Virus record (IMG/VR): IMGVR_UViG_2541047679_000003
DNA length: 35,960 bases
Source of the DNA: a virus
Lineage: Duplodnaviria; Heunggongvirae; Uroviricota; Caudoviricetes
Strand: one strand, 5' to 3'
Below the pieces are notes generated by a model that was given only the letters and a program-made list of their open reading frames with translations, had not been told where the DNA came from and did no database searches. Below, piece after piece: positions 2,837 through 24,059 of the stretch. Within the stretch, counting starts at the first letter, position 1, and every line of letters starts with the position of its first letter. Made by a program: the position numbers and the translations under genes.

Positions 2837-2867
2837 GGGGGCAGTATTGCCCCCGTGCGGGAACGCT

Positions 2868-2877
2868 GATATTAAAG
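2868..2877 (-). promoter_or_regulatory. candidate late promoter motif upstream of the baseplate W-like gene
   Basis: Minus-strand CTTTAATATC in the 54-bp gap before the gp25/W-like gene, followed by a GGGGGCA/TGCCCCC hairpin. Confidence 0.3.
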
Positions 2878-2890
2878 GCGTTTAAAAAGC

Positions 2891-3487
2891 TCAGTGGGAG
2901 TGGTGGCTGGAGTTTTCGCCATCAGACAACATACTGCCCGTGGCATGGACATTCCCTTTAATCTCGATATTGCCATGGATGGTCGCGGTAACACCTTCAC
3001 CACCAGAACCCGCCATGCCTCCTTCGTAAATCAGCTTACCCCTGACACGCAGATCTCCGGTAAGTTCGGTTTCCGGTGCGTCAATCGTGGCTTTCTGTGT
3101 TTTCAATACCACATCAGCACCACACTCAATGACAATATGCTCAATGCCGCCCCGGATGATCAGAGTGTGCGTCTTCCGGTTGTAGCTGTACTCTGCACCA
3201 TCAGCAAACCGGGTTCCCCGGATATTTTTGTCACTGAACGGTGGTTTATCGACGTCTGAATACACCGCGCCCAGAATAACACCATCCTCGCCGTTGGCAT
3301 CGAGCAGCACCTCAACCTGCTCCCCCACGTCAGGGAGCCAGTAATCTTTGTTATCCTGGGTATTGCGCTGCAGCACGTTAAGCCAGTTTGTGCGCAGGTT
3401 ATCGCATTCAGGCAGACGAACGCGGGCCTGAACCCTGTCGGCATCAACGGCACTGACCGTACCGACCTGACGAGTGACACCAGTCAT
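2891..3487 (-). CDS. baseplate assembly/spike protein, gpV-like
   Basis: 198-aa ORF, N-terminal region resembling P2 gpV-type spike proteins, Gly-rich C-terminus. Confidence 0.7.
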   Translation of the reverse strand: MTGVTRQVGTVSAVDADRVQARVRLPECDNLRTNWLNVLQRNTQDNKDYWLPDVGEQVEVLLDANGEDGVILGAVYSDVDKPPFSDKNIRGTRFADGAEYSYNRKTHTLIIRGGIEHIVIECGADVVLKTQKATIDAPETELTGDLRVRGKLIYEGGMAGSGGEGVTATIHGNIEIKGNVHATGSMLSDGENSSHHSH

Positions 3488-4638
3488 TTTTTCTTCTCCT
3501 TAATCACCGTCGATGTACTGCCATCCGGGTGATAAACCGTGAGTTTCTGAGTTTTTTGTTTTTTCCCTCTTGTGACTGGCCCCCGTGCCACTTCCAGCTC
3601 TGTGGTGTAGCCGCTGTTACGGTCAAACGCATGGCGGGCAGTGGTTATGAGCCATGGCCCGGATAACTGCCCAAAACTCACCAGTTCAATTTTGTTGCCT
3701 GCTGTCAGTTGAGGTGTTCCCGTCAGCGTCAGGGAGCCGTTCTGCTGGTATTCGTTATGTCTGGCCAGTGCTGAATCCGCTTTAATCCGGGCACTGTCCG
3801 GGTCGCTGACGCGGCTGTTAACTTTAAGTGAGTCAGCGCTGGTAACCTTACCACCTTTGAGCTTTTTGTCGCTTTCACGGGTACCACCATCAGCTTCGTA
3901 GACGATCAGTTTTTTACTGCTGCTTTTCTGGTGTTTTACCTTTGCAGATTTATAGACCCGGTTGATGGTGTCACGCAGGGAAAAGCGGGCCACATCCTGC
4001 GGTTTTAACTGCCTGACCGGCTCCTGACTGCGCAGTGTGGCCAGATGAGAAAAAATCAGCTGGTCACTGACCACTTTCACTGCATAACCATACTCGCTGG
4101 CCAGCCGGCGCAGAAAACCCACGTCGGTTTCAGCATACTGGGTCACCCGGTCGATTCTGATGGACTCAATGCTGCCCACCAGTTTCAGCCGGTGCTTTCT
4201 GGCAATCCGCCCCGCAACAGCTGCCAGCGTGGTGTTCTCAAAACCACGACTGGTTTTAGTCCGCAGGGCACTGTTAACCGAGGTGGCCACCCCACGGATA
4301 GAAACAACGGAAGCGGGCGAACTCACTTCGATCTCGTCTATAGAGAACGTACCGCAGGACAGCAGCTTCTCGCCCTGATAGCCCATTTTCAGCGTCAGCG
4401 TGTCACCCTTGCCCGGATACCATTTATCCAGCCAGCGGCCATCGGTGTCGTCCAGCTCCACCTCAATGGTATCGGACTCATTTTTGATGTTATCGCTCCA
4501 GGTCACACGGGTGACATAAGGCGCGATATCAGAGGTGATGTTTTTCTGCAGATACCACAGAGTGAACACCGGTGTCAGCACATCGCTGACGCCGGTTAAC
4601 GCTGATGTGACTTGCGCAGTGCTGTTTATCTCAGCCAT
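3484..4638 (-). CDS. tail protein, P2 gpD / Mu P-like
   Basis: 384-aa ORF in the position of the late control D-family tail protein. Confidence 0.65.
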   Translation of the reverse strand: MAEINSTAQVTSALTGVSDVLTPVFTLWYLQKNITSDIAPYVTRVTWSDNIKNESDTIEVELDDTDGRWLDKWYPGKGDTLTLKMGYQGEKLLSCGTFSIDEIEVSSPASVVSIRGVATSVNSALRTKTSRGFENTTLAAVAGRIARKHRLKLVGSIESIRIDRVTQYAETDVGFLRRLASEYGYAVKVVSDQLIFSHLATLRSQEPVRQLKPQDVARFSLRDTINRVYKSAKVKHQKSSSKKLIVYEADGGTRESDKKLKGGKVTSADSLKVNSRVSDPDSARIKADSALARHNEYQQNGSLTLTGTPQLTAGNKIELVSFGQLSGPWLITTARHAFDRNSGYTTELEVARGPVTRGKKQKTQKLTVYHPDGSTSTVIKEKKK

Positions 4639-4841
4639 GGGGCAATATCCTCTTCTGTACGGGCTTCTTCAGCCTCAATCACCGGGATCAGTAACAACAG
4701 CCCGGAGGGCAGCACCGGCGTGATGGCCACGTGCGGATTGGCGGCAATAATCCGGGGATAGCCCAGCGGGTCACCGTAGTACTGCCATGCCAGCGAATCC
4801 CAGCGCTCTCCGTCACGGGTAACATGTTCAAGAAACATCAC
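4626..4841 (-). CDS. tail protein X-like
   Basis: 71-aa ORF with an RWDSLAWQYYGDP motif typical of P2 gpX-like proteins. Confidence 0.6.
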   Translation of the reverse strand: MMFLEHVTRDGERWDSLAWQYYGDPLGYPRIIAANPHVAITPVLPSGLLLLIPVIEAEEARTEEDIAPWLR

Positions 4842-5722
4842 ACACTCCTCGTCAGTATTCTGGCGGCCATTGCACTTAATCCCGGAGACATGCGGTTGAA
4901 TGCTGTGCCGACGGCGTTAAGCTGCCCGGAAACGGTATCCAGAGCACCTGCAATATTTCTTTTGTCCACACCACTCAGCGCAGACTGTGCCTGCTGTACA
5001 TACGTGGCTGCTTCGCTGGCTGTTCTGGCCAGACTGATGGCATCGGGCATGGATTCAGAGAGTGCGTTAAACGCCGGAACACTTTTCCCCAGAGCCCCGG
5101 AGATATTACCCAGTCCGCTCATCAGCCCCGGCACACGGGTCAGTGCGACAACGGGGTTATCCTTCATTTTCTGTGTCACCCGAACGGCGCTGATAGTGGT
5201 CTGGAGTACAGACTGCGCCTGTTTCGCATAGTTGACGCCGTTGCGGATGAACTGCGCCACCCCTGAAGGTGAAGGTATGGCACCGGAGACCGCCCCGACA
5301 CCCGGGAGCTTCGTGCGTATTGCCGGTGGTTGCAGAGGATTTTTCGGGTCACCGGTGTATTCCCGGAGAGACACGGTGGCACTGACAGCCAGCACGTTGC
5401 CGGTACTGTCAGTCTGCTCGCTGGTTGCAGTCACATCGGTGATCACGAACCAGCCGCGATAGTCACCGTTGCCGAAGACCAGCGCCAGTGCCTGATGGGC
5501 TTTCATGGCTGTTCGCAGTCTCGCCAGCTCCACATCGGGTACACAATAATGCTGATGGAAAACCAGAGTTATCTGGATTTCGTCCAGCCTGTCGCCGACG
5601 AACTGCAGACCAGGCTTACCCCCGATGCGGGCATGCTCCGCATAATCGACGCCGAACGTGGCCTCGAAGCCGTCCCAGTAGGTAATCAGCTCAAACTCAA
5701 TATCACCCAGTACGGCAAACAT
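4838..5722 (-). CDS. tail protein, P2 gpU / Mu N (DNA circularisation)-like
   Basis: 294-aa ORF immediately downstream of the tape measure gene; N-terminus gpU-like. Confidence 0.55.
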   Translation of the reverse strand: MFAVLGDIEFELITYWDGFEATFGVDYAEHARIGGKPGLQFVGDRLDEIQITLVFHQHYCVPDVELARLRTAMKAHQALALVFGNGDYRGWFVITDVTATSEQTDSTGNVLAVSATVSLREYTGDPKNPLQPPAIRTKLPGVGAVSGAIPSPSGVAQFIRNGVNYAKQAQSVLQTTISAVRVTQKMKDNPVVALTRVPGLMSGLGNISGALGKSVPAFNALSESMPDAISLARTASEAATYVQQAQSALSGVDKRNIAGALDTVSGQLNAVGTAFNRMSPGLSAMAARILTRSV

Positions 5723-8673
5723 CAGCGGTACTCCTTACGTTGTTTCTGAGCCAGCAGACGCTCCAGCATTTTTTCCAGCTCATGCAGACTCATATTCAGG
5801 GCACCAGTCAGTCCTGCAGGCGCTGTGGTTTCCCTGCCATTGAGGAAAAACTGAGGATTAAAGCTGACCTGGATACCACCAGACGTTCCACCGCCGGTTG
5901 CAGCTGCACCACGGCCTGAATATCCGGCAGCCAGGATTTCAGGCGAGGGGATACGGGGAACATCCGGTGTCATCTCATTTGCCAGACGTTGCCCTGGTAA
6001 AATCGATGCCCGGGTGGAGAGCGGAATAGCGGGCATGGAAGACAAACTATTGATTACGGCTCCGATCGCATTTTTAGCAGACGACATAAACCCATTGATA
6101 TCGGGCAACGGCATACTGAAGCGAACACCTGAAGTGTTATCCCGTATTTCTGGCCCCTGAATGCTCACGGGCATTCTGGGGAGCAGTTCACTGGCCATTC
6201 GCTGCCCGGCCAGAGCTGCAAGCGGAGTGGTCCGCTGCAGGCCAATGGCGGCCCCCTGCGCGATATTGTCACCAAAGCCCATAAACACGCGGCTCGGCGA
6301 ATGAATGCCCAGCTTTTCGCTGAACCAGCCACTGATGCTGTCGCCCATTCCGGTTACACTGGATTTGAGCGACTCCCATTTGTTTTTGATACCGTTAATC
6401 AGACCATCGACAAGATGGCCACCGAAGTCGGTAAACTTTGCCGGCAGATCAACACCAAGATATTTCAGCGCAGCTGCAAAGGCTTTATAGAGCAGACCTG
6501 CCGGCGACCAGTTAATCAGCAGCTTACCAGTTCCCGCGATACCGCCGTTAAAGGCTTCCTGAATGTCAGCCCAGCATTGTTTAAACCAGCTACTGATGCT
6601 GTCACCCATTCCGGTTACACTGGATTTGAGCGACCCCCATTTGTTTTTGATACCGTTAATCAAACCGTCGATAAGATGGCCACCGAAGTCGGTGAACTTT
6701 GCCGGCAGAGTAACGCCGAAATATTTCAGCGCAGCCGCAAAGGCTTTATAGAGCAGGCCTGCCGGCGACCAGTTAATCAGCAGCTTACCAGTTCCCGCGA
6801 TACCGCCGTTAAAGGCTTCCTGAATGTCAGCCCAGCGCTGTTTAAACCAGCCACTGACTGCCCCCCAGTTGCGGTAGATAAGGTAAGCTGCTGCCGCGAC
6901 AGCGGTGATAACGAGACCGATGGGATTCATCATCAGCGCTCGCCCAATCCAGAGAACGGCACGTGCAGCGCTCATAAAACCGCGAACGAGGCTGCCCGCC
7001 AGAACTTTGCTGAGTTTCAGTCCTCCGCTGGTCAGTCGGCTGAATCCAGTGACAAGCCAGCGTAATTTGCCACCTTCTCCGAGTGCGGTAGTCAGTCGAT
7101 GCCAGTTGGTCCGGAGTAAAACAGCAGTTTTCCAGACGTTCACAAAGGGGGAAATAAGGAGATTCAGCCCCAGTTTGAGACCAACAGTCGCTATCTTAAT
7201 CGCAAGGAGCGCACTGATGAGCTTAAAAGCCCCACTGACAAATTGCGGGTGAGTCGCCACCCAGTGTTTTGTCCCCTGAATGAGTGGGAGCAAGTCCTGA
7301 GTCAGAGAAATAAAAGATGGAGCTAATTGATCGCCCAGCGTAATTGCCAGATCGCGACTGCTGACCATAAGTGTTTTAGTGGCTTCAAGGGGAGATTTCA
7401 GCCGCTGATCATAAGCACTGGCAAGCAAATCGTTATCCGCAGCCCTGAGAGCACCGGCACGGATCTCTCGATATCTGTCCATGTTGGCCAGCATCGGGCG
7501 GATAAATGCCATGACCTGCATATCCGCGAACATATCGCCCAGACCAAAGTTTTTCGCCAGAGCCTGAAGTGCCTCATCTCTTGCCGTATCATTCTTTATT
7601 TTCATGGCTGATTTGAAGCCGGCCAGCGCTTCGGGGCTTTTGGCATTGAGGTAACGTTCTATAACACTCAACATCCCTTCAATCGGAGAGATCCCCGCAG
7701 CTTTATAACTCGCAATAGATCCCTGCAAATCAATACCCAGATCAGCAAACTGTTTCTGAGTATCGCGGGCAAAAATTTTGGTAAGAAAGTTTTTAAAATT
7801 ATTGGCTGCTTCGTCGGTGGAACCTGCACCGATTTTTGCTATCTGGAGACTGGCCCCGATTTCAGCAACAGCCTCTTTTCCACTGGCAATACCCGCCATC
7901 ATTGGGGCCAGGGACTGCATCCACTTGACCTGATCCGGGATTTCAAATGACCCCTGGTCACCGGCATAAGCCATAATATTCTGAACGGCACCAAAATCTC
8001 TGGCCGCGCCTTTCAGGGAGTTTTGCCAGACTGCGGCCACTTTTGCCCAGTCCTGAGCAGACGTGCGTGTTGCCGTTGCCGCGCGGGCAATATCCGGCAT
8101 CAGAAAACCGATATCTGACACATTATCAATATTGTCGCTGATGAGTGAACCCATCGCCTCCTGCAGCTCATCCTGATACTGATTGTATTTAAGCGCCCAG
8201 CCTTTTATCTGTCCGGCAAGTGCATCCCGCGTTTTATTGTCATATTTTGCGGTGATCGACATATCAATCATTTTGTCCTGAAAAGACATGGACTGCTGAA
8301 CGGCAGGGGAAACCGTATGATAAACAGTCTGTGCCATGCCATACGCTTCAATCCCCTGACCATACAGCGCCATGCGGTTAGCTTTCAGCGCATCACTGGT
8401 AGCGGATGCCGCTGACAGACGGCGCTGCTGGCGCTCAATTTGCTCCATGGTGCGGCTTACCCGCAGCAGCTCGCTGTTGAGATGCTGCATCCGGGAAGAA
8501 CCCAGTTGACCATAACGTTCTGTTGCACGGGTTAAAGCGTTCTGACGTTCCTGCAGGCGGCGTGAGGTATCGCTCAGGGAATCAAGCGCACGGCGGGTAC
8601 CGCTCATTGCAGAACGGAATGTGCTGCCAATCATCCCGCCGATAACAACGCCGACTGAAAACTGTCCCGACAT
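5722..8673 (-). CDS. tail tape measure protein
   Basis: 983-aa ORF, helical/low-complexity, between chaperone genes and baseplate genes; contains an internal 87-aa tandem duplication. Confidence 0.85.
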   Translation of the reverse strand: MSGQFSVGVVIGGMIGSTFRSAMSGTRRALDSLSDTSRRLQERQNALTRATERYGQLGSSRMQHLNSELLRVSRTMEQIERQQRRLSAASATSDALKANRMALYGQGIEAYGMAQTVYHTVSPAVQQSMSFQDKMIDMSITAKYDNKTRDALAGQIKGWALKYNQYQDELQEAMGSLISDNIDNVSDIGFLMPDIARAATATRTSAQDWAKVAAVWQNSLKGAARDFGAVQNIMAYAGDQGSFEIPDQVKWMQSLAPMMAGIASGKEAVAEIGASLQIAKIGAGSTDEAANNFKNFLTKIFARDTQKQFADLGIDLQGSIASYKAAGISPIEGMLSVIERYLNAKSPEALAGFKSAMKIKNDTARDEALQALAKNFGLGDMFADMQVMAFIRPMLANMDRYREIRAGALRAADNDLLASAYDQRLKSPLEATKTLMVSSRDLAITLGDQLAPSFISLTQDLLPLIQGTKHWVATHPQFVSGAFKLISALLAIKIATVGLKLGLNLLISPFVNVWKTAVLLRTNWHRLTTALGEGGKLRWLVTGFSRLTSGGLKLSKVLAGSLVRGFMSAARAVLWIGRALMMNPIGLVITAVAAAAYLIYRNWGAVSGWFKQRWADIQEAFNGGIAGTGKLLINWSPAGLLYKAFAAALKYFGVTLPAKFTDFGGHLIDGLINGIKNKWGSLKSSVTGMGDSISSWFKQCWADIQEAFNGGIAGTGKLLINWSPAGLLYKAFAAALKYLGVDLPAKFTDFGGHLVDGLINGIKNKWESLKSSVTGMGDSISGWFSEKLGIHSPSRVFMGFGDNIAQGAAIGLQRTTPLAALAGQRMASELLPRMPVSIQGPEIRDNTSGVRFSMPLPDINGFMSSAKNAIGAVINSLSSMPAIPLSTRASILPGQRLANEMTPDVPRIPSPEILAAGYSGRGAAATGGGTSGGIQVSFNPQFFLNGRETTAPAGLTGALNMSLHELEKMLERLLAQKQRKEYR
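6320..6841. repeat. tandem direct duplication (2 x 261 bp) inside the tape measure gene
   Basis: cccattccggttacact at 6344 and 6605 with flanking near-identical sequence; encodes two copies of ...WFKQ[R/C]WADIQEAFNGGIAGTGKLLINWSPAGLLYKAFAAALKY... Confidence 0.85.
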
Positions 8674-8748
8674 AGTGGTTAACCTCCGGGGAAGGTGAAA
8701 AGACGTGAGGGGATAACGCAGAACAGCCGCTACTGGCGGCTGTCTGTA

Positions 8749-9006
8749 CTATGATTTGTCGCCGTACTCGCTTTTGATTTGCTCTTCAGCCTGCTCCAGC
8801 CACATCTCCAGATCGTCAGTATCGAGGGCATCAATCTCCCCCGGCTGAAACCGGAACCATCTCGCCAGCAGCCCCTGCGCCTGCGTCAGCGCCCTGGTTG
8901 CTCTCACCCATCCCCGTGATGAGCTGAAATCGTTTCTGTAACTGCAGGTAATCAGCCAGATCCATATTGTCGAGATCCTCCGGGAGAAGACCAGTACTGC
9001 GGGCAA
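8749..9006 (-). other. overlapping extension frame of the tail chaperone (candidate frameshift product C-terminus, E'-like)
   Basis: Frame is closed by a stop immediately upstream (9007-9009) and overlaps the 3' part of the chaperone gene; encodes an acidic helical tail ...FQPGEIDALDTDDLEMWLEQAEEQIKSEYGDKS. Confidence 0.4.
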
Positions 9007-9166
9007 TCAGCGGTTCGTCCCAGTCTGCCGGGTTTTTGCTGATTTTGCGCACCTGCTTCAGGTCTTTTACCGTCAGGCGTTTCAGTTCAACCAGCTCAAT
9101 TCTGGTGCCTGCAGCAGTGGTGAAGGGATAAGACAATTTAAAAGTATCGGATGGGGTCTGTGACAT
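8831..9166 (-). CDS. tail assembly chaperone, P2 gpE-like
   Basis: 111-aa ORF immediately upstream of the tape measure gene, ATG at 9166 with AGGAG SD; Gly/Ala-rich C-terminus. Confidence 0.55.
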   Translation of the reverse strand: MSQTPSDTFKLSYPFTTAAGTRIELVELKRLTVKDLKQVRKISKNPADWDEPLIARSTGLLPEDLDNMDLADYLQLQKRFQLITGMGESNQGADAGAGAAGEMVPVSAGGD

Positions 9167-9218
9167 GATTGTGCTCCTGTGTAAGTTCAGGGCAGTATGT
9201 CGGGAGAAGCGCGTGACG

Positions 9219-9228
9219 GATATTAAAG
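9219..9228 (-). promoter_or_regulatory. candidate late promoter motif upstream of the tail chaperone gene
   Basis: Minus-strand CTTTAATATC about 55 nt upstream of the chaperone ATG; a GC-rich inverted repeat (9243-9256) lies just upstream. Confidence 0.35.
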
Positions 9229-9263
9229 GAGATTAAGAAGAAGGGGCCGGAGCCCCTGTGATG

Positions 9264-9545
9264 TCAGCAAGTGCGAAACCCCTTGCAGTTACGCAGGAAA
9301 GCGATGAGAAGCGTCTTTCCCTCAGATTTGCCGATGCCGGAGAACCAGTGGTCGGGAGGCTCCCATGCTTCAATCAAATCCGCCAGTTTGCGGGCCTTTG
9401 AACGTGTGCAGTCAATCGGGTCATTGGTTTTACGGGTATTAAAAAGGGTTTCCACCCCCGGAATATCAAGGAGGGTAAACCACGTACCATTTGACATGCC
9501 CAGTGCCGCACATCGTCCTCCTTTATCCGTCAGTTCAACACTCAC
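9264..9545 (-). CDS. hypothetical protein (GTG start)
   Basis: 93-aa ORF between the tube and chaperone genes; start is GTG with a weak SD, so uncertain. Confidence 0.3.
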   Translation of the reverse strand: MSVELTDKGGRCAALGMSNGTWFTLLDIPGVETLFNTRKTNDPIDCTRSKARKLADLIEAWEPPDHWFSGIGKSEGKTLLIAFLRNCKGFRTC

Positions 9546-9547
9546 CG

Positions 9548-10069: not shown

Positions 10070-11496
10070 CAGTTGCCCCCTTTCAGGGTTAACAGGTATT
10101 CCGAGGTGATCTCAGTCTCAAACGTCAGTCGCTCCAGCGGCGGTGGTGGCGTATATTTGTAGCTCAGCAACAGGTGCCCGGCGGCCAGCTCCGTCTCCGG
10201 ATTGCGGGCCGGATCAAACCAGCAACGGAAGCCCAGTACCGCACCATCACCAGTCATTTTGCGACCGTAGGCGTTGACCGACTCCGTCAGTGCATCAATC
10301 AGCGCCTGAGTAATCGGCATGTCGATGTACTGCTGGCTGAAATAACGAATGGACTCGTTGATCACATCACCGGTGCGGCGAACGTTCTCAAAGTTACGCA
10401 TATGGGTGACCGTTGGCCATGCTGCCGTCCGGTTACCCCACAGACGAAGGCCGCTGCCGTAACTGCTGAATACCGTGGTGATCCCCTGTTCGTTAAGCAG
10501 GTTCACCTCACTCTGCGGGTCATCAATCATCGCGGACAGCTGGCGCTCCACGCCGGTGATCCCCAGAATCTCCTGATTGGAGGATGACCACCAGTAGCCC
10601 TTGTCCAGATCGACTCTGGCACGCAGACCTGCTGCACGCTGGCTGAGCGGCTCCAGACGCTCTGTGTTTGTCACCGGGTCATATACCTTCACATGCGGAT
10701 AGCACAGACGGACGCGGTCGGAGCTGGTATTGAAGTTGATGGTGCCTTCCGGGCCACGACCTGCCAGAGCCTGTGCAAAGGTGGTACCGACAGGCGCATC
10801 AATGTAGGTTACCGCGCCCAGCTTCTCTGCCATGGCGATAAGCTCAACTGCGACACTCTTCTGGGTGCAGAACACCGGCGCAATCAGAATTTTGGCGAAA
10901 TAGCCGTACAGGTTGAAGCTGTCGTTAAGCAGCTTCATGCCGGTTCGGTTTCCGGCGCTGTTCACCCCGCCGATGATGTCCGCCGCAGTCACCTTCGACG
11001 GGTCCGCGTACTCATAGCTCACCTTCACGCTGCCACCGGCCTCAATAGCCTTGCCCAGGTTCGTGAGCACACCCGCCTGCGCATCAACACGGTAGTCCGT
11101 GTTCGCCGTGTGGGTGGTGCTGCCTTCACTGTTTTTCACCACCACATTAGCGACAACCGGATGCGCCAGTCTGGCCTGCCCTGTCGATTTGTCAAAGGTA
11201 ACCACCTCATCCTCGATCGCCGTTTTATGTTTCGCCGGGTCGAGGACGTTAATGACCAGAACGGTGCCTGCACCATGGTCATAAATCGCATCCAGCGCCT
11301 GCGGAATGGTAAAGCCGGTGAACTGGCTGCCAAATGCCGCTGCGTCTTTCTCAGACAGGCACTGTACCAGCGTATTGACATCCCCCATCGGGGCGGTACC
11401 AATCAGGCCAATAACGGCAGATTTCACCGTTTTAACCGGGCGGGCACCGTTTTCCACCTCAATGGTTTCGGGACCATGCAGATAGTTAGCTGCCAT
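10069..11496 (-). CDS. contractile tail sheath protein
   Basis: 475-aa ORF, ATG at 11496 with GGAGGA SD, sheath-tube gene order. Confidence 0.85.
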   Translation of the reverse strand: MAANYLHGPETIEVENGARPVKTVKSAVIGLIGTAPMGDVNTLVQCLSEKDAAAFGSQFTGFTIPQALDAIYDHGAGTVLVINVLDPAKHKTAIEDEVVTFDKSTGQARLAHPVVANVVVKNSEGSTTHTANTDYRVDAQAGVLTNLGKAIEAGGSVKVSYEYADPSKVTAADIIGGVNSAGNRTGMKLLNDSFNLYGYFAKILIAPVFCTQKSVAVELIAMAEKLGAVTYIDAPVGTTFAQALAGRGPEGTINFNTSSDRVRLCYPHVKVYDPVTNTERLEPLSQRAAGLRARVDLDKGYWWSSSNQEILGITGVERQLSAMIDDPQSEVNLLNEQGITTVFSSYGSGLRLWGNRTAAWPTVTHMRNFENVRRTGDVINESIRYFSQQYIDMPITQALIDALTESVNAYGRKMTGDGAVLGFRCWFDPARNPETELAAGHLLLSYKYTPPPPLERLTFETEITSEYLLTLKGGN

Positions 11497-12647: not shown

Positions 12648-12648
12648 G

Positions 12649-12987: not shown

Positions 12988-12996
12988 AACGCCTCC

Positions 12997-13950: not shown

Positions 13951-13964
13951 GCTCTCTCCTTAAA

Positions 13965-15080: not shown

Positions 15081-15135
15081 TTTGCTGTCCCGCGTTATGT
15101 TGTCGGAGACAGTTTGTGAGAAATGCAGGCCCGGC

Positions 15136-15145
15136 GATTTTAATC
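15136..15145 (-). promoter_or_regulatory. candidate late promoter motif upstream of the I-like gene
   Basis: Minus-strand GATTAAAATC about 58 nt upstream of the I-like ATG, inside a 214-bp intergenic gap. Confidence 0.3.
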
Positions 15146-15294
15146 TGCTTTAGAAAACATCAGGGGAGAAGGACAGGGAAAGCAATGCGGTGAACCGGAG
15201 GCGGTTATAAAACAGAGGCTGTAAAGCCTTTATAAAGGTAATACAGCCCCTCATTCGCTGGCAATGATAAATCACCCGCCTGAAGAGAGAAAAC

Positions 15295-15753: not shown

Positions 15754-15755
15754 TG

Positions 15756-16604: not shown

Positions 16605-18054
16605 AGAGAATGCGGGCCAGCCGCTCCTGCAGATCGTCCGTGTTCATCTGAGGGTAGAGCTCCGCCAGTTCGCCCAGCAGCTCAGACGGGTTAACCCCGT
16701 TTTCGACCCGCCTGAACAGAGGTGCCAGGACGGGTTCCAGCGTGCCATTTAACGCGCCTCCGTTCATCAGAATGTCCAGCGCGTCGTCAAGCTGCTGCTG
16801 AGCCTGAATATCAGCATCAATCGCCTCGGCAAATGACAGCGGCAGCATGTTATTCTGGCGTTCCGACGGTGGTGTCTCGTCAATATCGCCGTCCTGCAGT
16901 TGGTACTCACGCTTGAAGTACTGCGGGGTCAGACGCAGACCCGCCCGGGTGAGTTTTTCGTCGCGGGTGGCACGGGTGTCATCAATGGCCTCCTGTTCCC
17001 ACATGGCCCAGACCGGACACGGCACATCGCCGAAGTTCAGGGTGACCACCGTTCTGATGACCTGATTCACTGCCGCCTGAATGATGTCCGCATCCGCATC
17101 GCGGATATCAGCCGTTACCTCCAGCCCGGCCTGTGCAGAGGCCTTGTTACTGTTCGCTTCCGTGGTCTGATTCTGACCGAGTAATGCAATGGAGATCTCA
17201 CTGCGTGACAGTGTGATCAGCTCGCGAAATACCTCGCTGCTGTCTGCCTTGCCATCCGCTGCCCTGAGCTCAATACTGCTGTCATCGGGGATGGCGGCCA
17301 CCGCGTCCTCCACCATCTGCTCCATGGAGTCCAGCAGTTTTTCAATCTCTGCATCATTTGCGCCCCTCGGGTGCTTACCGATCACCCACGGGGAGCCAAA
17401 CTTTTCGGCAAAGCGGAGCCAGAATTTCATCCCGCCTTTCTTGAAGGCGACCGGCCAGAAGCACATGGACAGGTCCGGGAAACCGTAAGGATTGTCATAC
17501 GAGGCATCCTGTGCCGGCACCACGAATTTTGACGGTGACAGCAGCTCACCCTCCACACCCGCATCACGCGCCCGAAAGCGCAGGCAGTTGTCCGTATCAA
17601 ACTGAAACCACTCAGGCGGTTTGCCGACAATATCCGTCACCGCCCACGACCTGACCGAACGGCCCCACATGATTTCACAGGGCTGATACCCGTAGAGCAC
17701 GGCATCGCTCATTTCACCGATGATGCGGGACAGATCCAGATCGTCGAGCATGTCGCGGATGAAACGGAAGACCCGGGCAGAGGCGTGACCACGCTCCAGT
17801 CCACGCTCCAGCGATTTGAGCGCTGCTTTACGTCTGCGGATACAGCCCCCGACCAGCGGGTCGGTGCGCAGTTCGCGGTAGATACGGATATCCCGTCCCT
17901 GAGCCTTGAGAATGGGATCAGGATTGGGCAGATACATGCCCAGTCCGTAAAAGTCGATCGCGCGGCTGCGGGAGGCAATCTGCGCGGTCAGTGATTTCTG
18001 AGGCTCAGAAAAAGCAACAAATTCATCGGGTGAAACCCAGATACCCCTCGCCAT
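16558..18054 (-). CDS. portal protein, Mu gp29-like
   Basis: 498-aa ORF directly downstream of the large terminase gene. Confidence 0.85.
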   Translation of the reverse strand: MARGIWVSPDEFVAFSEPQKSLTAQIASRSRAIDFYGLGMYLPNPDPILKAQGRDIRIYRELRTDPLVGGCIRRRKAALKSLERGLERGHASARVFRFIRDMLDDLDLSRIIGEMSDAVLYGYQPCEIMWGRSVRSWAVTDIVGKPPEWFQFDTDNCLRFRARDAGVEGELLSPSKFVVPAQDASYDNPYGFPDLSMCFWPVAFKKGGMKFWLRFAEKFGSPWVIGKHPRGANDAEIEKLLDSMEQMVEDAVAAIPDDSSIELRAADGKADSSEVFRELITLSRSEISIALLGQNQTTEANSNKASAQAGLEVTADIRDADADIIQAAVNQVIRTVVTLNFGDVPCPVWAMWEQEAIDDTRATRDEKLTRAGLRLTPQYFKREYQLQDGDIDETPPSERQNNMLPLSFAEAIDADIQAQQQLDDALDILMNGGALNGTLEPVLAPLFRRVENGVNPSELLGELAELYPQMNTDDLQERLARILFVANIRGRLHERDNG

Positions 18055-19649
18055 CAGAATCCCTCCAGCATACGGGCCGCCTGACGACGACGGCGTGAGC
18101 TTGCCTTCACCGGCCCTTTGTTAATTTCACGGCTGGCGAAATACGCCAGCGCCAGTGCGATGGCTGAATCCCCGTGGCGTTTACCACCGTCAGCCTTTGC
18201 TTTTGAGCGTTGCTCCGGTACGCGGGGGACACCGTTCACCACCTGAACGGCCCGCAGGTCATCCAGTGTGTCTTCATCCTTTGGTAAGTCCACCAGGTTG
18301 CCGTCTTCCAGTGCAGCTTTGACCGGAGGCATATGCTCCCGGTACCAGCCTTCGGTTGGCATCACCTGCTGAACCCGGCCGGAGCCGTAGCGCTGCATGG
18401 CGTATTCAGCCAGATAGGCACCATTACCACGGGCATCAAACGCTGCACCCAGCAGACCGGGCAGGCCATCCATCAGATACCAGGTGATTTGCTCCTGCTG
18501 TCTGAACGGCACGTTACGCAGCTCCAGTACGAATGGCACGCGTCGTACCAGGTTCTTCTCCTGCAGCAGGGGATAGTCCACCGACAAATCACCGCTACGG
18601 CCAAAGTCGCGCCCCAGGAAAGAGCGGGCATCAGTGGGGAGTGCCTCCAGCAATGGTTTCAGATACTCATCAAGCCAGTCCTGCGTCTCGCGGAAGCGAA
18701 CCTCATCAGACAGCAGTTCATAACCTTCCTTGCAGGTCAGACGCAATACCGGCGTATCAGCGGACATGCGGGACTCTATCAGGGCACGGGACAGCCAGGC
18801 ACCGCCACCGTTGGCCGGAATACAGTCAAGCTCTTCGGATGCGCCGGCACCGTAGAATTTGTACACCGATGCCATCCAGGCCTGCTCGGATGCCTCCGAC
18901 CATTCCTTCCCGGTGCGCAGACAGACGCGCCGGAACAGCCCCTCAGATACGGCTTCCCGGAAAGTGATGCGATGTATGCTGCCTCCCTGACGTCCGGCAC
19001 GGATATCCCCGATAAGCGTATTGAACGGATTGTCGTCACCGTCATGGGTGGAGATAACGCGTACCTTTCCCCCCCAGATAAGCATCGCCAGCGCCGCTTT
19101 CAGCAGTTCGTCCAGTTGCTCATGGAACGCCGCTTCGTCGATAACAATAATACCCTGACGGCCACGCAGGTTAGACGGGCGGCTGGAGAGCGCAACAATA
19201 CGAAAGCCGGAGTCAGGAAATTTGATGGTGTAAGTCTTGATGTGTTTGTCGTCGTCGTCCTCTTCCCAGAATCCTTCTTCAATTTCACTGGCCGCATAGT
19301 TGAATGCCCGTGCCCACATCGCACACGCCTGAATGTATTCGACGGTCATGTCCTGGTTATAAGCGATGTAATACACATTCATCCCGCCTGCTGGCGCAGA
19401 AGAGGCGGCGGTCAGTACGTTATCGGATGCCTCAGCCCATGTAATACCGGTACGACGGCTCTTTTCTATCACCTTAAGCGGAGAGGTGTCTGCCACCCAG
19501 CGCTGCTGGTAAGGCAACAGAACGGGAGGGGCATCCAGCGCCGAGGTATCAGGCAAAACGGGAGCAAGGTTATTCCTCCCGTCCATGGGACTCATCCCTT
19601 CGGGGCCGCCGCCAGCGGCGTTTAAAATCACTCCGGATGATTTTGTCAT
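18054..19649 (-). CDS. terminase large subunit, Mu gp28-like
   Basis: 531-aa ORF, acidic motif ...IIVIDEAAF..., between the gp27-like and portal genes. Confidence 0.85.
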   Translation of the reverse strand: MTKSSGVILNAAGGGPEGMSPMDGRNNLAPVLPDTSALDAPPVLLPYQQRWVADTSPLKVIEKSRRTGITWAEASDNVLTAASSAPAGGMNVYYIAYNQDMTVEYIQACAMWARAFNYAASEIEEGFWEEDDDDKHIKTYTIKFPDSGFRIVALSSRPSNLRGRQGIIVIDEAAFHEQLDELLKAALAMLIWGGKVRVISTHDGDDNPFNTLIGDIRAGRQGGSIHRITFREAVSEGLFRRVCLRTGKEWSEASEQAWMASVYKFYGAGASEELDCIPANGGGAWLSRALIESRMSADTPVLRLTCKEGYELLSDEVRFRETQDWLDEYLKPLLEALPTDARSFLGRDFGRSGDLSVDYPLLQEKNLVRRVPFVLELRNVPFRQQEQITWYLMDGLPGLLGAAFDARGNGAYLAEYAMQRYGSGRVQQVMPTEGWYREHMPPVKAALEDGNLVDLPKDEDTLDDLRAVQVVNGVPRVPEQRSKAKADGGKRHGDSAIALALAYFASREINKGPVKASSRRRRQAARMLEGF

Positions 19650-20191
19650 GTGGCAATCCCCAGAATCTCGCGACGAAGCGCCTGTACTGCGTCGCTTGAC
19701 AGTCCCCCCTTACGGGCAATTTTCTCGGCGTTGCTGGCTGCCTGCTGCGCTCTGGCCCGTACTTCAGACTGGAACTTTTTGAGGTTGACGGACGCGCGGG
19801 ACAGCGTAGCCACATTCTTCGCCACCTTCGACAGCAGGGCCACGCGTTCTTTAGGATCGACTTCGCCTTCTTCCGCCTCCTGCAACTGGACAATACTCTC
19901 GAACAGCTCGGTCTGAATAAGGGCTATCACAGCCTCCGAACGCGCATCCTGATCGTCTGCTGCGCCTTCGGTCAGCATGCGGGCCGCTTCTGTTGCCGCA
20001 CGGATAGCACCATAGCGGCGCTCAATCTTCTGTCCATAGCGATGGATAGCGGATTTGCTGATGACGTACCCCCGCTCACGCAACAGTGACTCCAGCTCGT
20101 TATACCCGCTGAAGCCGGATTCAGTCAGCGCCCGTTCAAGCCAGCGGCGCACGTCTTCCGGCAGCTTTTCTATTGTGCTGCGTCTGGCCAT
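19646..20191 (-). CDS. Mu gp27-like protein (putative small terminase/DNA-binding)
   Basis: 181-aa ORF, N-terminus MARRSTIEKLPEDVRRWLERAL..., immediately upstream of the large terminase. Confidence 0.65.
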   Translation of the reverse strand: MARRSTIEKLPEDVRRWLERALTESGFSGYNELESLLRERGYVISKSAIHRYGQKIERRYGAIRAATEAARMLTEGAADDQDARSEAVIALIQTELFESIVQLQEAEEGEVDPKERVALLSKVAKNVATLSRASVNLKKFQSEVRARAQQAASNAEKIARKGGLSSDAVQALRREILGIAT

Positions 20192-20502
20192 TATTCACTC
20201 CAGTACTTTTCCGGGCGGGCAATACCCGGACCACATTCCACGGTGTATTCCACCAGGTCTACGCCGAGGCGGGTCAGGTCAGCAAACCAGTCGCCAGAAG
20301 GTTTTTTCTCCAGCTCAACCATTTTACGGTCAGCCAGATAATCCAGTTCGCGGCGCAGTTCCAGCGGTGTGGTGTCCGGGTAGATGGCACGGGACACATC
20401 CAGCAGCAGCGTCTCGCTGGCGGTGTAAGGGCGGGTCTTGTTCAGGGCAACCAGCAGACTCCAGCGCAGGGATTCGCGGCGTACCCGGGTAATATCGACC
20501 AT
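20191..20502 (-). CDS. hypothetical protein
   Basis: 103-aa ORF between the lysis genes and the gp27-like gene. Confidence 0.45.
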   Translation of the reverse strand: MVDITRVRRESLRWSLLVALNKTRPYTASETLLLDVSRAIYPDTTPLELRRELDYLADRKMVELEKKPSGDWFADLTRLGVDLVEYTVECGPGIARPEKYWSE

Positions 20503-20828
20503 TATTGACCTCCGGTATTGCGGTACTGCTGTACCACTTCCAGTTTGTTATAAAGCGCGTCCAGTTTGGCCTCAATGACTGTCTGGCCACGGATATAATC
20601 CTCTCGACGGACATAATTCAGCGGTAAATCCGCTTTAAATCGCATAAATTCTTTTTCCAGCTCGCCCCAGTTGGAGGCGGATTGTTGCAGGGCCTGTTCA
20701 AGGGAGGCGAATCGTGCCGCCTGGCGTTCTTCTGTTTTACTGAACAACCATTTGGCGAGCCCTCCCACAAACCTCATGAAGGTGAGCAGAAAACTCACCA
20801 CCGTCCAGAATTCAACCTGCAGTGTCAT
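20502..20828 (-). CDS. small membrane protein (lysis-associated?)
   Basis: 108-aa ORF with an N-terminal transmembrane segment and a coiled-coil C-terminus, directly after the spanin genes. Confidence 0.45.
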   Translation of the reverse strand: MTLQVEFWTVVSFLLTFMRFVGGLAKWLFSKTEERQAARFASLEQALQQSASNWGELEKEFMRFKADLPLNYVRREDYIRGQTVIEAKLDALYNKLEVVQQYRNTGGQ

Positions 20829-21475
20829 TTCTGTAATCCTTCCCGTTCATCCAGCAGCGCGTTTATCTGGTTCCGCCAGCGACGACATTGCCATGCGTTG
20901 TCGATGATGTTGGCGAGAACGTCACGCTGGGAGACACCCGAATCGCGTAACCGGGTGTCAGTGGTTTCAGGTTGCCCGGTCGCTGTGCCAGAGCGGGTGC
21001 CAGTGGCGGCAACTGAGTCTGAATGACCGGTGTCGACGGATGCGTTGTCATATCCGAGTGCGGCGTTGTACTGGCGCACGAAACCGCGAGTAAACACGCA
21101 CTCAATGGGATGACTCTTACCTTTTTCATCAATCCAGCGCTGTGTGACATCGTTAATTTGCCCCTGTAGTTGTTTGTTCCGGCTCTCCAGTTGAGCAATC
21201 TGCTCAAGATAACCGGCTTCAGCCCGCTGCCCGGCGGCCACCTGCTCCTGATACCGTCTGGCCCAGGCCCGCAGCGCAGCATTCTCAAGCGTTGCCTGCT
21301 CCGTTTTGTACGCGTCAAATGCTGACTGCAACTGACTTAGCGCGGTATCACCGTCACGCTTTGCAGAGTCATGACCACTTCTGTATCCCATGGCATACAG
21401 GCCGACCAGAAAGGCATTGATAAGAATGGCCAGCAGAATGCCGCGCCACGGCAGCTTTTTAACCAGATGCCACAC
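20825..21475 (-). CDS. i-spanin (Rz-like), probable GTG start
   Basis: N-terminal TM segment (ILLAILINAFLVGLYAMGY), long coiled-coil periplasmic domain, follows the endolysin gene; GTG at 21475 preceded by GGGAGG; the ORF-track start overlaps the endolysin. Confidence 0.5.
   Translation of the reverse strand: MWHLVKKLPWRGILLAILINAFLVGLYAMGYRSGHDSAKRDGDTALSQLQSAFDAYKTEQATLENAALRAWARRYQEQVAAGQRAEAGYLEQIAQLESRNKQLQGQINDVTQRWIDEKGKSHPIECVFTRGFVRQYNAALGYDNASVDTGHSDSVAATGTRSGTATGQPETTDTRLRDSGVSQRDVLANIIDNAWQCRRWRNQINALLDEREGLQK
20863..21129 (-). CDS. o-spanin (Rz1-like lipoprotein) nested in the i-spanin gene
   Basis: Alternate-frame ORF starting MKKVRVIPLSACLLAVSCAS (lipobox-like) followed by a Pro-rich sequence, wholly inside the i-spanin gene. 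Confidence 0.45.
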   Translation of the reverse strand: MKKVRVIPLSACLLAVSCASTTPHSDMTTHPSTPVIQTQLPPLAPALAQRPGNLKPLTPGYAIRVSPSVTFSPTSSTTHGNVVAGGTR

Positions 21476-22199
21476 AACTGCTGCCTCCCCATGTGAGATA
21501 TCGCGGTGCCAGTTCGCGCAGGATGCGCTGCGGATAATGGCGGTTCTCCCGCCAGCTGGCCGCATTGCGTCCGGCATTCACCGTGGCGACATGTCCGAAC
21601 CAGCGGGTGCTGTCCAGACCTTTCTGTGATGCAAGCCGCCTGTCCCGTTGTACCCAGCCCAGACCACCGTTATAGCCCGACAGTGTCATGGCCATACGCT
21701 CGCAGTCACTGGCGGCGCTGACACGCTGCCACAGCCAGCGGTCATAGCTGACCAGCGCCCGGATAGCCCATGCCGGATTAAACGGCTCACGACTGCTCAG
21801 CATCGGTATCAACTGGCTTATCCAGTCGGCAGTGGCAGGCATGAACTGCGCCAGTCCCTGAGCGCCAGCCGGCGAGATCGCATCAGGTCGCCAGCCGCTT
21901 TCCTGATGCAGTTGCGCGGCGAAATCGGCCACCGGCGCAGACAGTCCCCATTCAAGCCGGGCATTACGGATCACATCATCGCGATACTGCAGCGCAGCCT
22001 GCGGAGGTTGTGCTGCGCATGCCTGGCTGAAAAAGCCGCCACACCAGAGCAACATTGCGACAAAGAATACCCATGCCATATGAACCAGAAAGGTCCCGGC
22101 GCGGACTGACAGGCGTTCGGTTCTGATGAAGACCCGAAAGGCTTCGAAAGCCAGTTTCAGGGACATGCATACAATCCAGGTGATCTGCGGCCAGTTCAT
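21459..22199 (-). CDS. endolysin, lytic transglycosylase (SLT domain)
   Basis: ...LHQESGW... and ...AQGLAQFMPATADW... SLT motifs; N-terminal hydrophobic stretches (possible signal-anchor); start is coupled to the upstream ORF stop. Confidence 0.75.
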   Translation of the reverse strand: MNWPQITWIVCMSLKLAFEAFRVFIRTERLSVRAGTFLVHMAWVFFVAMLLWCGGFFSQACAAQPPQAALQYRDDVIRNARLEWGLSAPVADFAAQLHQESGWRPDAISPAGAQGLAQFMPATADWISQLIPMLSSREPFNPAWAIRALVSYDRWLWQRVSAASDCERMAMTLSGYNGGLGWVQRDRRLASQKGLDSTRWFGHVATVNAGRNAASWRENRHYPQRILRELAPRYLTWGGSSCVASG

Positions 22200-22201
22200 G
22201 A

Positions 22202-22552
22202 TTAAAGCCCCATCGCAACAGCCAGGCAGACCGCTGCAACAATCAGTGCACGGCGGATTAACGCAGCAGAAAACACCAGGTGAAGGCCGGTCTGTACCGG
22301 GAAACGCCCTTCAGCCATCAGCCTGTCGTCATGTTTCAGGTACTGACCGGGACGGGCTTTGGGGAAGAGCGAACGGTCAAGCCAGTAACCCAGCACTGCT
22401 GCCAGCGTGATGAGTGCCAGCTTGTAGATCACAACAGGCAGCTGCTGTGGTGAGACCAGAGCGATGGTGCCCAGCAACAGCACTGAGGTCAGCAGCCAGC
22501 CGCTGAGGCGAGGTTTTTTAACAGGGGGAATGAATTTTTTCAGGTTTTTCAT
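22202..22552 (-). CDS. membrane protein (holin/antiholin-like) opening the lysis operon
   Basis: ATG at 22552 preceded by AAGGAG; 116-aa product with 2-3 predicted TM segments. Confidence 0.5.
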   Translation of the reverse strand: MKNLKKFIPPVKKPRLSGWLLTSVLLLGTIALVSPQQLPVVIYKLALITLAAVLGYWLDRSLFPKARPGQYLKHDDRLMAEGRFPVQTGLHLVFSAALIRRALIVAAVCLAVAMGL

Positions 22553-22612
22553 GTGTGTCTCCTTATCTGGTGGAGACAGCATCACAAATACAGGGCGCGA
22601 AGGATTTTAAAG

Positions 22613-22622
22613 CGCGTTAAGA
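22613..22622 (-). promoter_or_regulatory. candidate late promoter motif upstream of the lysis operon
   Basis: Minus-strand CTTTAAAATC about 50 nt upstream of the first lysis gene; shared with three other late-region gaps. Confidence 0.35.
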
Positions 22623-22682
22623 GAGCCGGGGATACGGGATGTGCAGGATAAACGATGAATTATTCACAGAGGAGAATACGAT

Positions 22683-24005: not shown

Positions 24006-24059
24006 TCCCTAAACCACATTAACAGAAATCCCGCCATCCCTGCCGCATCATGAAAGAAC

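Follow-up and report, generated by a model that had tools for sequence, protein, structure and literature searches.

Mor-type dyads and 23-bp-spaced hexamers as candidate activator-dependent late promoters in a BcepMu-type E. coli prophage

Nearly the same 10-mer is found in four intergenic gaps on the late strand of the prophage examined here, which raises the question of what the repeat marks and which of its parts belong to a promoter. The original prediction was that the gaps contain Mu-like, Mor/C-dependent late promoters, with the 10-mer as a weak -10 element and a C-rich tract further upstream as the activator site. We consider it likely that the repeat marks activator-dependent late promoters of a BcepMu-type transposable E. 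coli prophage, in which a Mor-family activator would act on a dyad located 23 bp from a weak -10 hexamer. Activator-dependent promoters without a -35 element are very probable, as had been proposed, whereas the promoter parts had been assigned wrongly.

The minus-strand copies of the 10-mer were CTTTAAAATC at positions 22603-22612, GATTAAAATC at 15136-15145 and CTTTAATATC at both 9219-9228 and 2868-2877 of the window, by which we mean the whole stretch of 35,960 nt that was analysed. There is one copy for each true late-strand gap, located before the genes for the holin, the head protease, the tail chaperone and gpW. All four predicted copies were present, but the coordinates given for the first of them (22613-22622) were 10 nt off, since that segment reads TCTTAACGCG. 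The pattern GATWTTAAAG had 3 exact matches in the window, against 0.05 expected, in addition to one variant, and 3 or more matches were reached in none of 100 shuffles. A search over the prophage and its relatives confirmed that the repeat is non-random and that the sites recur in the gaps of the relatives.

A comparison with 37 related prophages and BcepMu showed that the conserved element is a dyad, TTAA-N6-TTAA, followed exactly 23 nt downstream by the hexamer nAnaCT and then a G. The TTAA that had been noticed 5 to 10 nt before the 10-mer is real and corresponds to the left half of this dyad. The spacing was tallied at sites anchored on the dyad alone, in the window and 37 loci that represent 6 or more lineages, which gave 80 unique sites. 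At a spacer of 23 nt, nAnnnT was found in 78 of these sites, as compared with 32 at the next-best offset, and the sequence of the spacer itself was almost unconserved across the related sites. The tally was used instead of an information-content table, which was circular at the A2 and T6 columns because the sites had been selected on these positions.

Within the window, the combined pattern TTAA-N6-TTAA-N23-nAnnCT, with at most 1 mismatch, matched the late strand only at the four late gaps (0.21 matches expected), and the perfect TTAA-N6-TTAA dyad was present in 3 copies in 36 kb, each at a late gap. In 727 kb of related loci there were 121 late-strand matches, about 110 of which were located in the four gaps, as compared with 24 matches on the opposite strand and approximately 14 in shuffles. 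Furthermore, a PWM trained on the relatives only assigned scores of 33 to 43 bits to the four late sites, whereas the shuffle maximum was 15.7 bits.

The four late-gap boxes (Table 1) fit the definition of the Mor-type 16-bp dyad (PMC4390567) and are conserved in the relatives. Each of the candidate -10 hexamers (GATGCT, CAAACT, CATACT and AATACT) has A2 and T6, although as -10 elements they are weak, matching TATAAT at 3 to 4 of 6 positions, and no TG of an extended -10 was found upstream of any of the four. The statement that the gaps lack a -35 element was borne out, as a canonical -35/-10 pair was absent from every gap, and a scan for canonical sigma-70 promoters returned none in the gaps and a total number of predictions equal to that in shuffles. 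An Rfam search of the gaps and leaders identified no family; the sole match was a tRNA at positions 35882-35955.

Table 1. Candidate promoter elements, hairpins and activator gene in the window
Feature	Coordinates	Strand	Sequence	Remarks
Palindromic candidate activator box, gap 1	22607..22620	both directions proposed	TTAAcgcgctTTAA	one of only 3 perfect dyads in 36 kb
Predicted -10, lysis-operon promoter	22578..22583	-	GATGCT	23 nt from gap-1 box
Candidate rightward -10	22644..22649	+	CAGGAT	23 nt from gap-1 box; followed by SD gaggag and ATG 22683 (242-aa ORF)
Candidate activator box	15140..15153	-	CTAAagcagaTTAA	before head protease/scaffold gene (Mu I equivalent); same box in at least 20 relatives
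Predicted -10, protease promoter	15111..15116	-	CAAACT	23 nt from box; predicted start near 15104-15103; ATG 15080
Leader hairpin	15084..15113	-	ACTGTCTCC...GCGGGACAGC	5' arm from inside -10 hexamer; 3' arm abuts protease start codon
Terminator-like hairpin	15216..15229	-	AGGCTTTACAGCCT then CTGTTTTATA	after G-like gene, upstream of protease promoter
Candidate activator box	9223..9236	-	TTAAtctcctTTAA	before tail assembly chaperone
Predicted -10, chaperone promoter	9194..9199	-	CATACT	23 nt from box; predicted start near 9187; ATG 9166
Intrinsic terminator	9242..9257	-	AGGGGCTCCGGCCCCT then TCTTCTT	directly upstream of chaperone box; top-ranked; conserved in relatives
Candidate activator box	2872..2885	-	TTAAacgcctTTAA	before baseplate gene W
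Predicted -10, gpW promoter	2843..2848	-	AATACT	23 nt from box; inverted repeat GGGGGC/GCCCCC on both sides
Fifth candidate box promoter	24009..24051	+	CTAAaccacaTTAA-N23-CATCAT	approximately 54 nt upstream of methyltransferase gene 24106-24960
12-bp hairpin	24060..24091	+	GACCAGCCCGGC-acccgaaa-GCCGGGCTGGTC	methyltransferase 5' UTR
Mor-family activator gene	33739..34128	+		last of early operon, directly after GemA homolog; 129 aa

Transcription of the lysis operon is predicted to start at the A at position 22571, upstream of the holin ATG at 22552, which is preceded by the SD sequence aaggag. We take 22552 as the true holin start, since the PHROG holin profile begins at residue 12 of the listed ORF. 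The hexamers of the relatives were GATGCT, AAAACT, CACACT or CATGCT at the lysis promoter, and CATACT, GATACT, CAGACT, GACAAT or CACAAT at the chaperone promoter, with the same spacing at each. The terminator-like hairpin upstream of the protease promoter has an equivalent in BcepMu.

In the fourth gap, the gpW ATG (2836) begins 7 nt past the hexamer and has no SD sequence, from which we predict that the gpW mRNA is leaderless and starts at the A of this ATG. In all 12 unique gpW sites, the hexamer was followed by the ATG at a distance of 5 to 8 nt. A distance of 6 to 7 nt, again without an SD sequence, was shared by gpW and the betaproteobacterial protease and lysis promoters, which supports the assignment of the hexamer as the -10 element.

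Hairpins overlap the predicted -10 elements and start sites. The 5' arms of the protease and holin hairpins start at the CT of the hexamer, and in the protease hairpin both-sided changes were observed at 5 of the 8 pairs among 14 sequences, Mu PI included. Since the hexamer belongs to conserved hairpins, constraints on the RNA could account for part of its conservation. In a stronger version, with which the position of the arms and the compensatory changes in the protease stem would agree, nAnaCTG owes its conservation to the RNA, where it forms the 5' arm of leader hairpins, rather than to a role as -10 element, transcription starts further upstream and the promoter is only loosely defined by the dyad. 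We find this improbable, however, because the invariant positions are A2 and T6, of which A2 lies outside the stem, because the hexamer is present in the TAC promoters although these have no convincing stem, and because the hexamer in Betaproteobacteria (GATCAT, GACAAT or CACAAT) is located in the loop of the hairpin and not in the arm. Furthermore, the layout recurs in Mu Pm and the C-dependent promoters, where a dyad centre at -43.5 puts the starts just after the hexamers (PMC4287176, PMC2582627).

The original assignment placed the -10 element in the TAAAAT or TAATAT of the 10-mer, with a start about 7 nt later, and the activator site in the C-rich tract. The window hexamers are all good -10 matches (TAAAAT twice, TAATAT twice) and the lack of a -35 in the four gaps would fit, but what the 10-mer covers is the right half-site TTAA, together with the final 2 nt of the spacer before it and 4 flanking bases. 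The final T, which is critical in a -10 element, was kept in only 47 of the 80 unique related sites and lost in 33, most protease sites having TAAAAG, those of Jeongeupia TAACCG, and others differing as well. Nor is the C-rich tract a shared upstream element, since CCCC was found at that distance in only 27 of the 80 sites; in the third gap the tract forms the descending stem of the late region's best intrinsic terminator (9257-9242), and in the fourth gap it represents the final codons of gene V, CAC CAC TCC CAC TGA. The invariant 23-nt spacing to a second hexamer, anchored by its A and T, and the identity with the geometry of Mu Pm would also be left unexplained. On the grounds of conservation and the identity of the tracts, we reject this assignment and see hardly any chance that it is correct.

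For the dyad-based promoters, the likely activator is the Mor/C-family protein already named in the original prediction, which is encoded by the only Mor/C ORF in the window and matched Pfam Mor at 1e-43 (profile positions 1-107 of 107). With its 129 aa it fits the build of the Mor/C family, small proteins of about 100 to 150 aa with an N-terminal dimerisation region, a GG..Y.P.G linker and a C-terminal HTH. The linker residues G53, G54, Y58, P60 and G62 were invariant in an alignment with Mor, C and BcepMu gp01, and the HTH core was identical to that of BcepMu gp01. In BLASTP searches, the protein showed 30% identity to Mor over 109 aa (E 2e-15) and 37% identity to C over 79 aa (E 5e-15); because the similarity to the two is about equal, its specificity was deduced from the sequence of the box and not from the protein.

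A palindrome alone does not name its binder, and several HTH proteins are encoded by the prophage, so that the dyad might instead be the operator of another of its DNA-binding proteins, which would repress or otherwise mark the late units. Such a protein could be the cI-type HTH_3 repressor (25077-25433) or a winged-helix protein (25762-26076). We regard this as very unlikely, since the early control region around the repressor gene contained no copy of the dyad, the dyad is located at a fixed distance from a -10-like hexamer on the transcribed side, and up to 13 of the 14 box positions agree with the Mor site that has been footprinted in Mu Pm (PMC4287176). The signature of late promoters of the P2 Ogr type, a TGT-N12-ACA dyad near -55, was absent within 140 nt upstream of the four late start codons.

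From the promoter architecture, its conservation and the match to Mu Pm, all of which can be read from the sequences themselves, we infer binding by the prophage activator, dependence on this activator and the start sites. The sigma-70 promoters in the four gaps would depend on the Mor-family activator, which is encoded by the last gene of the early operon and would bind the 14-16 bp dyad (T/C/G)TAA-N6-TTAA. The dyad would occupy the -35 region, with its centre near -43.5 when numbered as in Mu Pm; a start 7 nt past the hexamer would put it at -42.5. The activator would then recruit or activate the host RNA polymerase on the weak -10, nAnaCT followed by G, exactly 23 bp downstream. Four leftward units are predicted, extending from the lysis genes through the head genes to the G-like gene, from the protease to the tube, from the chaperone to V, and from W onward, and terminators would separate the first three of these. 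At least one rightward unit, that of the Dam-like methyltransferase, would also be driven by the activator.

The count of four promoters, said to be as in Mu, was too low, because one or two more box promoters point rightward. The fifth box promoter scored 20.8 bits with the PWM, against the shuffle maximum of 15.7, and the gene downstream of it encodes a D12-class N6-adenine, Dam-like methyltransferase (Pfam MethyltransfD12, 9e-29). A box followed by N23 or N24 and nAnnnT was located before the methyltransferase gene in all 16 unique homologs with at least 81% identity, in 6 box variants, whereas it was found in only 1 of 55 homologs below 77% identity. The arms of the hairpin in the 5' UTR differ in sequence yet still pair in the related loci L049, L052 and L056. 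The rightward CAGGAT at the gap-1 box is the weaker candidate, since its PWM score is low; in L052-L055, the promoter on the methyltransferase side reads TTAAagggcgTTAA-N23-CAGGAT. Furthermore, L047, L049 and L052 contain an equivalent single box between divergent genes for the holin and the methyltransferase, with a hexamer on either side. Transcription from the gap-1 box is probably bidirectional. Plus-strand starts are predicted at about 24058 and perhaps at 22656-22657.

More tentatively, and with some doubt, these observations can be joined in a single reading, according to which one box drives two divergent promoters and the first genes of the units are translationally insulated. Leftward the divergent box would serve the holin gene, rightward the methyltransferase gene or ORF242, and there would be a separate -10 element at 23-24 bp for either direction. 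In the first gene of a unit, the ribosome-binding region would pair with the sequence that contains the -10, upstream of the start site. Such a hairpin would be confined to read-through RNA, and translation would be limited to transcripts that begin at the Mor promoter, with the leaderless gpW mRNA as the extreme case. Since Mu Pm, Plys and PI fold like the prophage leaders, hairpin insulation could, if true, extend to Mor/C-dependent promoters in general, for which it would be a previously undescribed property. Both the bidirectional box and the layout with a hairpin or a leaderless start would go beyond the Mu paradigm and might apply to Mu too.

The prophage family is present in approximately 11% of complete E. 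coli genomes. The box consensus, the fixed 23-bp geometry and the six predicted starts provide a testable map of late transcription for this family and the whole BcepMu group, and natural variants of the Mor box are supplied for recent structural work on Mor/C-RNA polymerase complexes.

Of the known systems, the Ogr/Delta-controlled late genes of P2/P4 are similar in that four activator-dependent late promoters precede P2-type tail and baseplate genes (V, W, J, I), but the prophage is without TGT-N12-ACA and has a Mor-family activator instead of the zinc-finger Ogr. BcepMu has the same gene order, with gp01 as its single gene of the Mor/C type, and carries box-N23-hexamer sites in the same four gaps, at 11485, 18812, about 24530 (2 mismatches) and 30774. 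Its protease box, GTAAagccgaTTAA, agrees with the Mu Pm box at 13 of 14 positions, and at the annotated start of gp49 the ATG follows the hexamer by 6 to 7 nt without an SD sequence, as in the gpW gene of the prophage. BcepMu differs in that a GC-rich inverted repeat brackets the hexamer in three promoters, and in that both the protease and the gpW promoters look leaderless, whereas only the gpW promoter does so in the prophage. In dRNA-seq data from B. cenocepacia J2315, the only start-site map found, in which the BcepMu prophage is covered, no starts were observed at the predicted late promoters, as expected for an uninduced lysogen. It was also noted that few starts in these data lie within the BcepMu prophage, for example 21 nt upstream of gp20. 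A literature search, the scope of which did not extend to the 2004 BcepMu paper, returned no described BcepMu-type late promoter or Mor box and nothing relevant on phage PhiKM.

The C-dependent late promoters of Mu resemble the predicted ones in that several units depend on an activator, a dyad replaces the -35 element, and promoters are located before the lysis genes and the protease gene I (PMC2582627, PMC4461284). The protease hexamer of the prophage with its G, CAAACTG, is identical to the inferred Mu PI hexamer, and each phage has a DNA-modification gene among the late-activated genes, mom in Mu and, as predicted here, the Dam-like methyltransferase gene in the prophage. The third and fourth promoters serve P and mom in Mu, but the tail chaperone and W in the prophage. 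Furthermore, the dyad of the C-dependent promoters is TTAT-N6-ATAA, or ATAA alone, with a 24-bp spacer (in Pmom, Plys and PI, ATAA is located 24 bp from the hexamer), whereas the prophage has half-sites TTAA/TTAA and a spacer of 23 bp. The proposed likeness to the four late promoters of Mu therefore has to be moved to another promoter of the same phage, since the box matches the Mor site of Mu Pm and not their C sites.

The Mor dyad of Mu extends from -51 to -36, centred at -43.5, with 5-bp repeats, a G/C-rich 6-bp spacer and no -35 element (PMC4287176, PMC4390567), and Pm reads GTAAagccggTTAA-N23-TATCCTg. In Pm, with GTAAagccggTTAA, and in all four prophage sites, with (T/C/G)TAA-N6-TTAA, A/T half-sites of 4 to 5 bp flank a G/C-rich 6-bp spacer, the distance from the dyad to a weak -10 followed by G is 23 bp, and there is no -35 (PMC4287176, PMC4390567). 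As in Mu, the gene for the Mor-family activator follows gemA and closes the early operon. The main difference is that Mu uses this design once, for the second activator C, whereas the prophage appears to use it before the lysis, head, tail and baseplate units as well as the methyltransferase gene. Since there is no second Mor/C gene and the Mor box is located directly before the late units, the cascade appears to be two-tier instead of three-tier, which suggests that in such phages a Mor-type activator acts directly on the late genes, without C as an intermediate. Judged from its sequence, the prophage is a new, well-resolved example of the Mor/C promoter design known from phage Mu.

The window is a transposable E. 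coli prophage of the BcepMu type; an 11-kb query from it matched phage PhiKM at 100% identity over 65% of its length. The late genes run leftward from about position 22552. The first late-strand gap (gap 1), which precedes the holin gene, lies in a region that was carried by 620 of 5426 complete E. coli genomes, and gaps 2, 3, and 4 precede the genes for the head protease, the tail chaperone, and gpW. In the segment 22553-22585 (minus strand), a mechanical ORF call puts the holin start at a GTG codon at 22585, inside the promoter. The tRNA gene at the right edge is presumably part of the host flank; a listed minus-strand ORF of 459 amino acids (34576-35955) overlaps it.

Features of the probable late-promoter system of the prophage, with coordinates in the window
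Feature	Coordinates	Strand	Description
Late genes, lysis/head		minus	holin, SLT endolysin, spanin, terminase, portal, F- and G-like genes, head protease, capsid
Late genes, tail/baseplate		minus	sheath, tube, tail chaperone, tape measure, V, W, J, I
Early operon		rightward	cro/ner-like HTH protein, rve transposase, AAA+ B-like protein, GemA, then 129-aa Mor-family protein
Mor-family activator	33739-34128	plus	129 aa; last gene of early operon; Pfam Mor end to end, 1e-43
Holin true start	22552	minus	ATG; SD aaggag upstream; 116 aa
Promoter hexamers			GATGCT, CAAACT, CATACT, AATACT; 23 nt from dyad
Holin hairpin	22556-22578	minus	sequesters SD; little variation
Protease hairpin	15084-15113	minus	5' arm from CT of hexamer; 3' arm abuts start codon
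gpW hairpin	2837-2855	minus	leaderless case
Gap-3 terminator	9257-9242	minus	AGGGGCTCCGGCCCCT then TCTTCTT; strongest in late region
Fifth box promoter	24009-24051	plus	CTAAaccacaTTAA-N23-CATCAT; 20.8 bits (PWM); about 54 nt 5' of methyltransferase gene
D12-class N6-adenine DNA methyltransferase gene	24106-24960		downstream of fifth box
tRNA gene	35882-35955	plus	61 bits; right edge of window, past Mor gene

The original prediction of Mor-dependent late promoters was judged right in general but wrong in how it assigned the parts, and none of the four gaps contained a canonical -35/-10 pair. The 10-mer CTTTAA(A/T)ATC, which it took for the -10 element, was found on the minus strand once in each of the four true late-strand gaps (22603-22612, 15136-15145, 9219-9228, and 2868-2877), although the first copy had been placed 10 nt away, at 22613-22622. 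The string GATWTTAAAG had 3 matches in the window versus 0.05 expected.

From 37 related prophage loci (Enterobacterales and Betaproteobacteria), collected through their capsid gene, and from BcepMu, we took and compared the regions 5' of the genes homologous to those for the holin, the protease, the chaperone, and gpW. At the sequence level, this comparison established both the promoter architecture and its conservation. The element kept across the relatives was a dyad, (T/C/G)TAA-N6-TTAA, here called the box; the 10-mer takes in no more than its right half-site, the last 2 bases of its spacer, and 4 flanking bases. Exactly 23 nt 3' of the dyad was a second conserved block, nAnaCT with a G after it. 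With the alignment anchored on the dyad alone, nAnnnT occurred at a spacer of 23 in 78 of the 80 unique sites, compared with 32 of 80 for the next-best offset, and the 23 spacer bases showed almost no conservation. The betaproteobacterial hexamers (GATCAT, GACAAT, CACAAT, or CACCAT) retained A2 and T6. Bases immediately 3' of the box were moderately conserved among the relatives; in Mu, the bases directly downstream of the dyad are reported to be important for activation (PMC2582627).

The perfect dyad had only 3 copies in the window, each at one of these gaps, and on the late strand the composite pattern matched the four gaps only (0.21 expected). Related loci totalling 727 kb gave 121 late-strand matches, of which the four gaps accounted for about 110, and 24 opposite-strand matches, with about 14 in shuffles. 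A PWM trained on relatives only scored the four sites in the window at 33 to 43 bits, versus a shuffle maximum of 15.7.

The remaining elements that had been proposed were not retained. The final T of TAAAAT/TAATAT, the suggested -10, was present in only 47 of the 80 unique sites, the corresponding hexamer in the relatives being TAAAAG in most protease promoters and TAACCG or TAACTG in some others, and CCCC was located at the distance given for the shared C-rich tract in 27 of 80. As activator elements, the tracts of gaps 3 and 4 were rejected: the former is the descending stem of the strongest late-region terminator, and the latter the last codons of gene V. Directly 5' of the protease box is a C-run followed by a T-run (ctcccctgatgtttt; 15154-15175, minus strand), semi-conserved among enterobacterial relatives (cccccgatttttt), which might work in the manner of the proximal UP subsite known from Mu Pm.

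The window contained a single ORF of the Mor/C family, as predicted. The protein retains the family-invariant GG..Y.P.G linker residues, and its HTH core, ELARKFGVSLQW.Y, is also that of BcepMu gp01, the two proteins being 54% identical overall. It resembles Mu Mor and Mu C to about the same degree, so the grounds for assigning it to the box are the sequence of the box and the lack of any other candidate. According to a recent preprint (bioRxiv 10.1101/2025.05.02.651988), Mor and C span two adjacent major grooves and contact alpha-CTD, sigma-70 region 4, and the beta flap, a mechanism that the activator in the window probably shares.

We infer that induction would lead the early operon to yield the Mor-type protein, which would bind the boxes and, acting on the sigma-70 RNA polymerase of the host, turn on four leftward promoters, with predicted starts near 22571, 15104, 9187, and 2836. 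Between the first three units are terminators, at 15229-15216 and 9257-9242. A second activator gene is absent, so the cascade appears to run from early to late, without the middle step of Mu. The TSS map of J2315, a BcepMu lysogen that had not been induced, contained no late starts. No earlier description of these promoters was found in the literature covered, the 2004 BcepMu paper being outside its scope.

The ATG of gpW was located 6 to 7 nt past the hexamer, without an SD, at every one of the 12 unique sites (2836-2848, minus strand, in the window) and also in BcepMu, as were those of the protease and lysis promoters of betaproteobacterial relatives, so leaderless mRNAs are predicted for these genes. 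Two BcepMu sites (30811-30825 and 18849-18864) had the leaderless-type layout; the gp32 start as annotated (18850) probably lies 12 nt upstream of the real one. The -10 and start site are overlapped by hairpins, with the 5' arm beginning within the hexamer or immediately past it and the 3' arm over the SD or against the start codon, and in the leaderless cases the hexamer is bracketed by a GC-rich inverted repeat. Compensatory changes were observed at 5 of the 8 pairs of the protease stem (14 sequences, Mu PI included). The stems would form on read-through RNA only, which suggests a putative role in translational insulation. The same kind of fold was seen in Mu at Pm, Plys, and PI (Mu positions about 9211, 10444, and 18018).

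The fifth box, upstream of the methyltransferase gene, was kept in all close homologs of that gene (IMG/VR loci L040-L056). The box with N23/24 and nAnnnT was present in 16 of 16 unique homologs of at least 81% identity, representing six box sequences, and in only 1 of 55 below 77%. In L047, L049, and L052 (about 2860-2960), the holin and methyltransferase genes diverge directly around a single palindromic box with a -10 hexamer on either side, one per strand, which gives each gene its own promoter. Gap 1 of the window (22578-22649) retains this layout, AGCATC-N23-box-N23-CAGGAT, then an SD and an ATG at 22683, and its rightward side now faces a 242-aa ORF (22683-23411). Segment 22683-24005 thus resembles an insertion that lies 3' of the ancestral rightward promoter. 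The methyltransferase 5' UTR contains a 12-bp GC-rich hairpin (24060-24091, plus strand), the arms of which have other sequences in L049, L052, and L056 yet can still pair there; it has no U-tract after it and no match in Rfam. Functionally, the box promoter parallels Mu Pmom, which serves the late-activated modification gene mom.

In the Mu genome, the Mor-dependent middle promoter Pm reads aGTAAagccggTTAAt-N23-TATCCTg. The Mor dyad, a pair of 5-bp inverted repeats around a G/C-rich 6-bp spacer, is located at -51 to -36 (centre -43.5) in place of a -35, and the -10 is recognisable (PMC4287176, PMC4390567). TATCCT thus falls at -13 to -8, and box-N23-hexamer in the window has the geometry of an experimentally defined Mor promoter. 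The BcepMu protease box, GTAAagccgaTTAA, equals Mu Pm at 13 of 14 positions. An extra box-like site in BcepMu (TGAAcgagcaTTAA-N23-CAAAAT; 10453-10495, plus strand), in the gp18-gp19 gap about 160 nt 5' of gp19, may be one more promoter or may have arisen by chance. In contrast, the C-dependent Mu Pmom reads TTATgccccaATAA-N24-TAAGAT, Plys ATAA-N24-TAGACT, and PI ATAA-N24-CAAACT; the dyads of C-dependent promoters likewise have their centre at -43.5 (PMC2582627). In the window, the protease promoter has CAAACTG as its -10, the same as the hexamer inferred for Mu PI. It is well supported that the promoters in the window follow the Mor-type design already known, with some unexplored variations.
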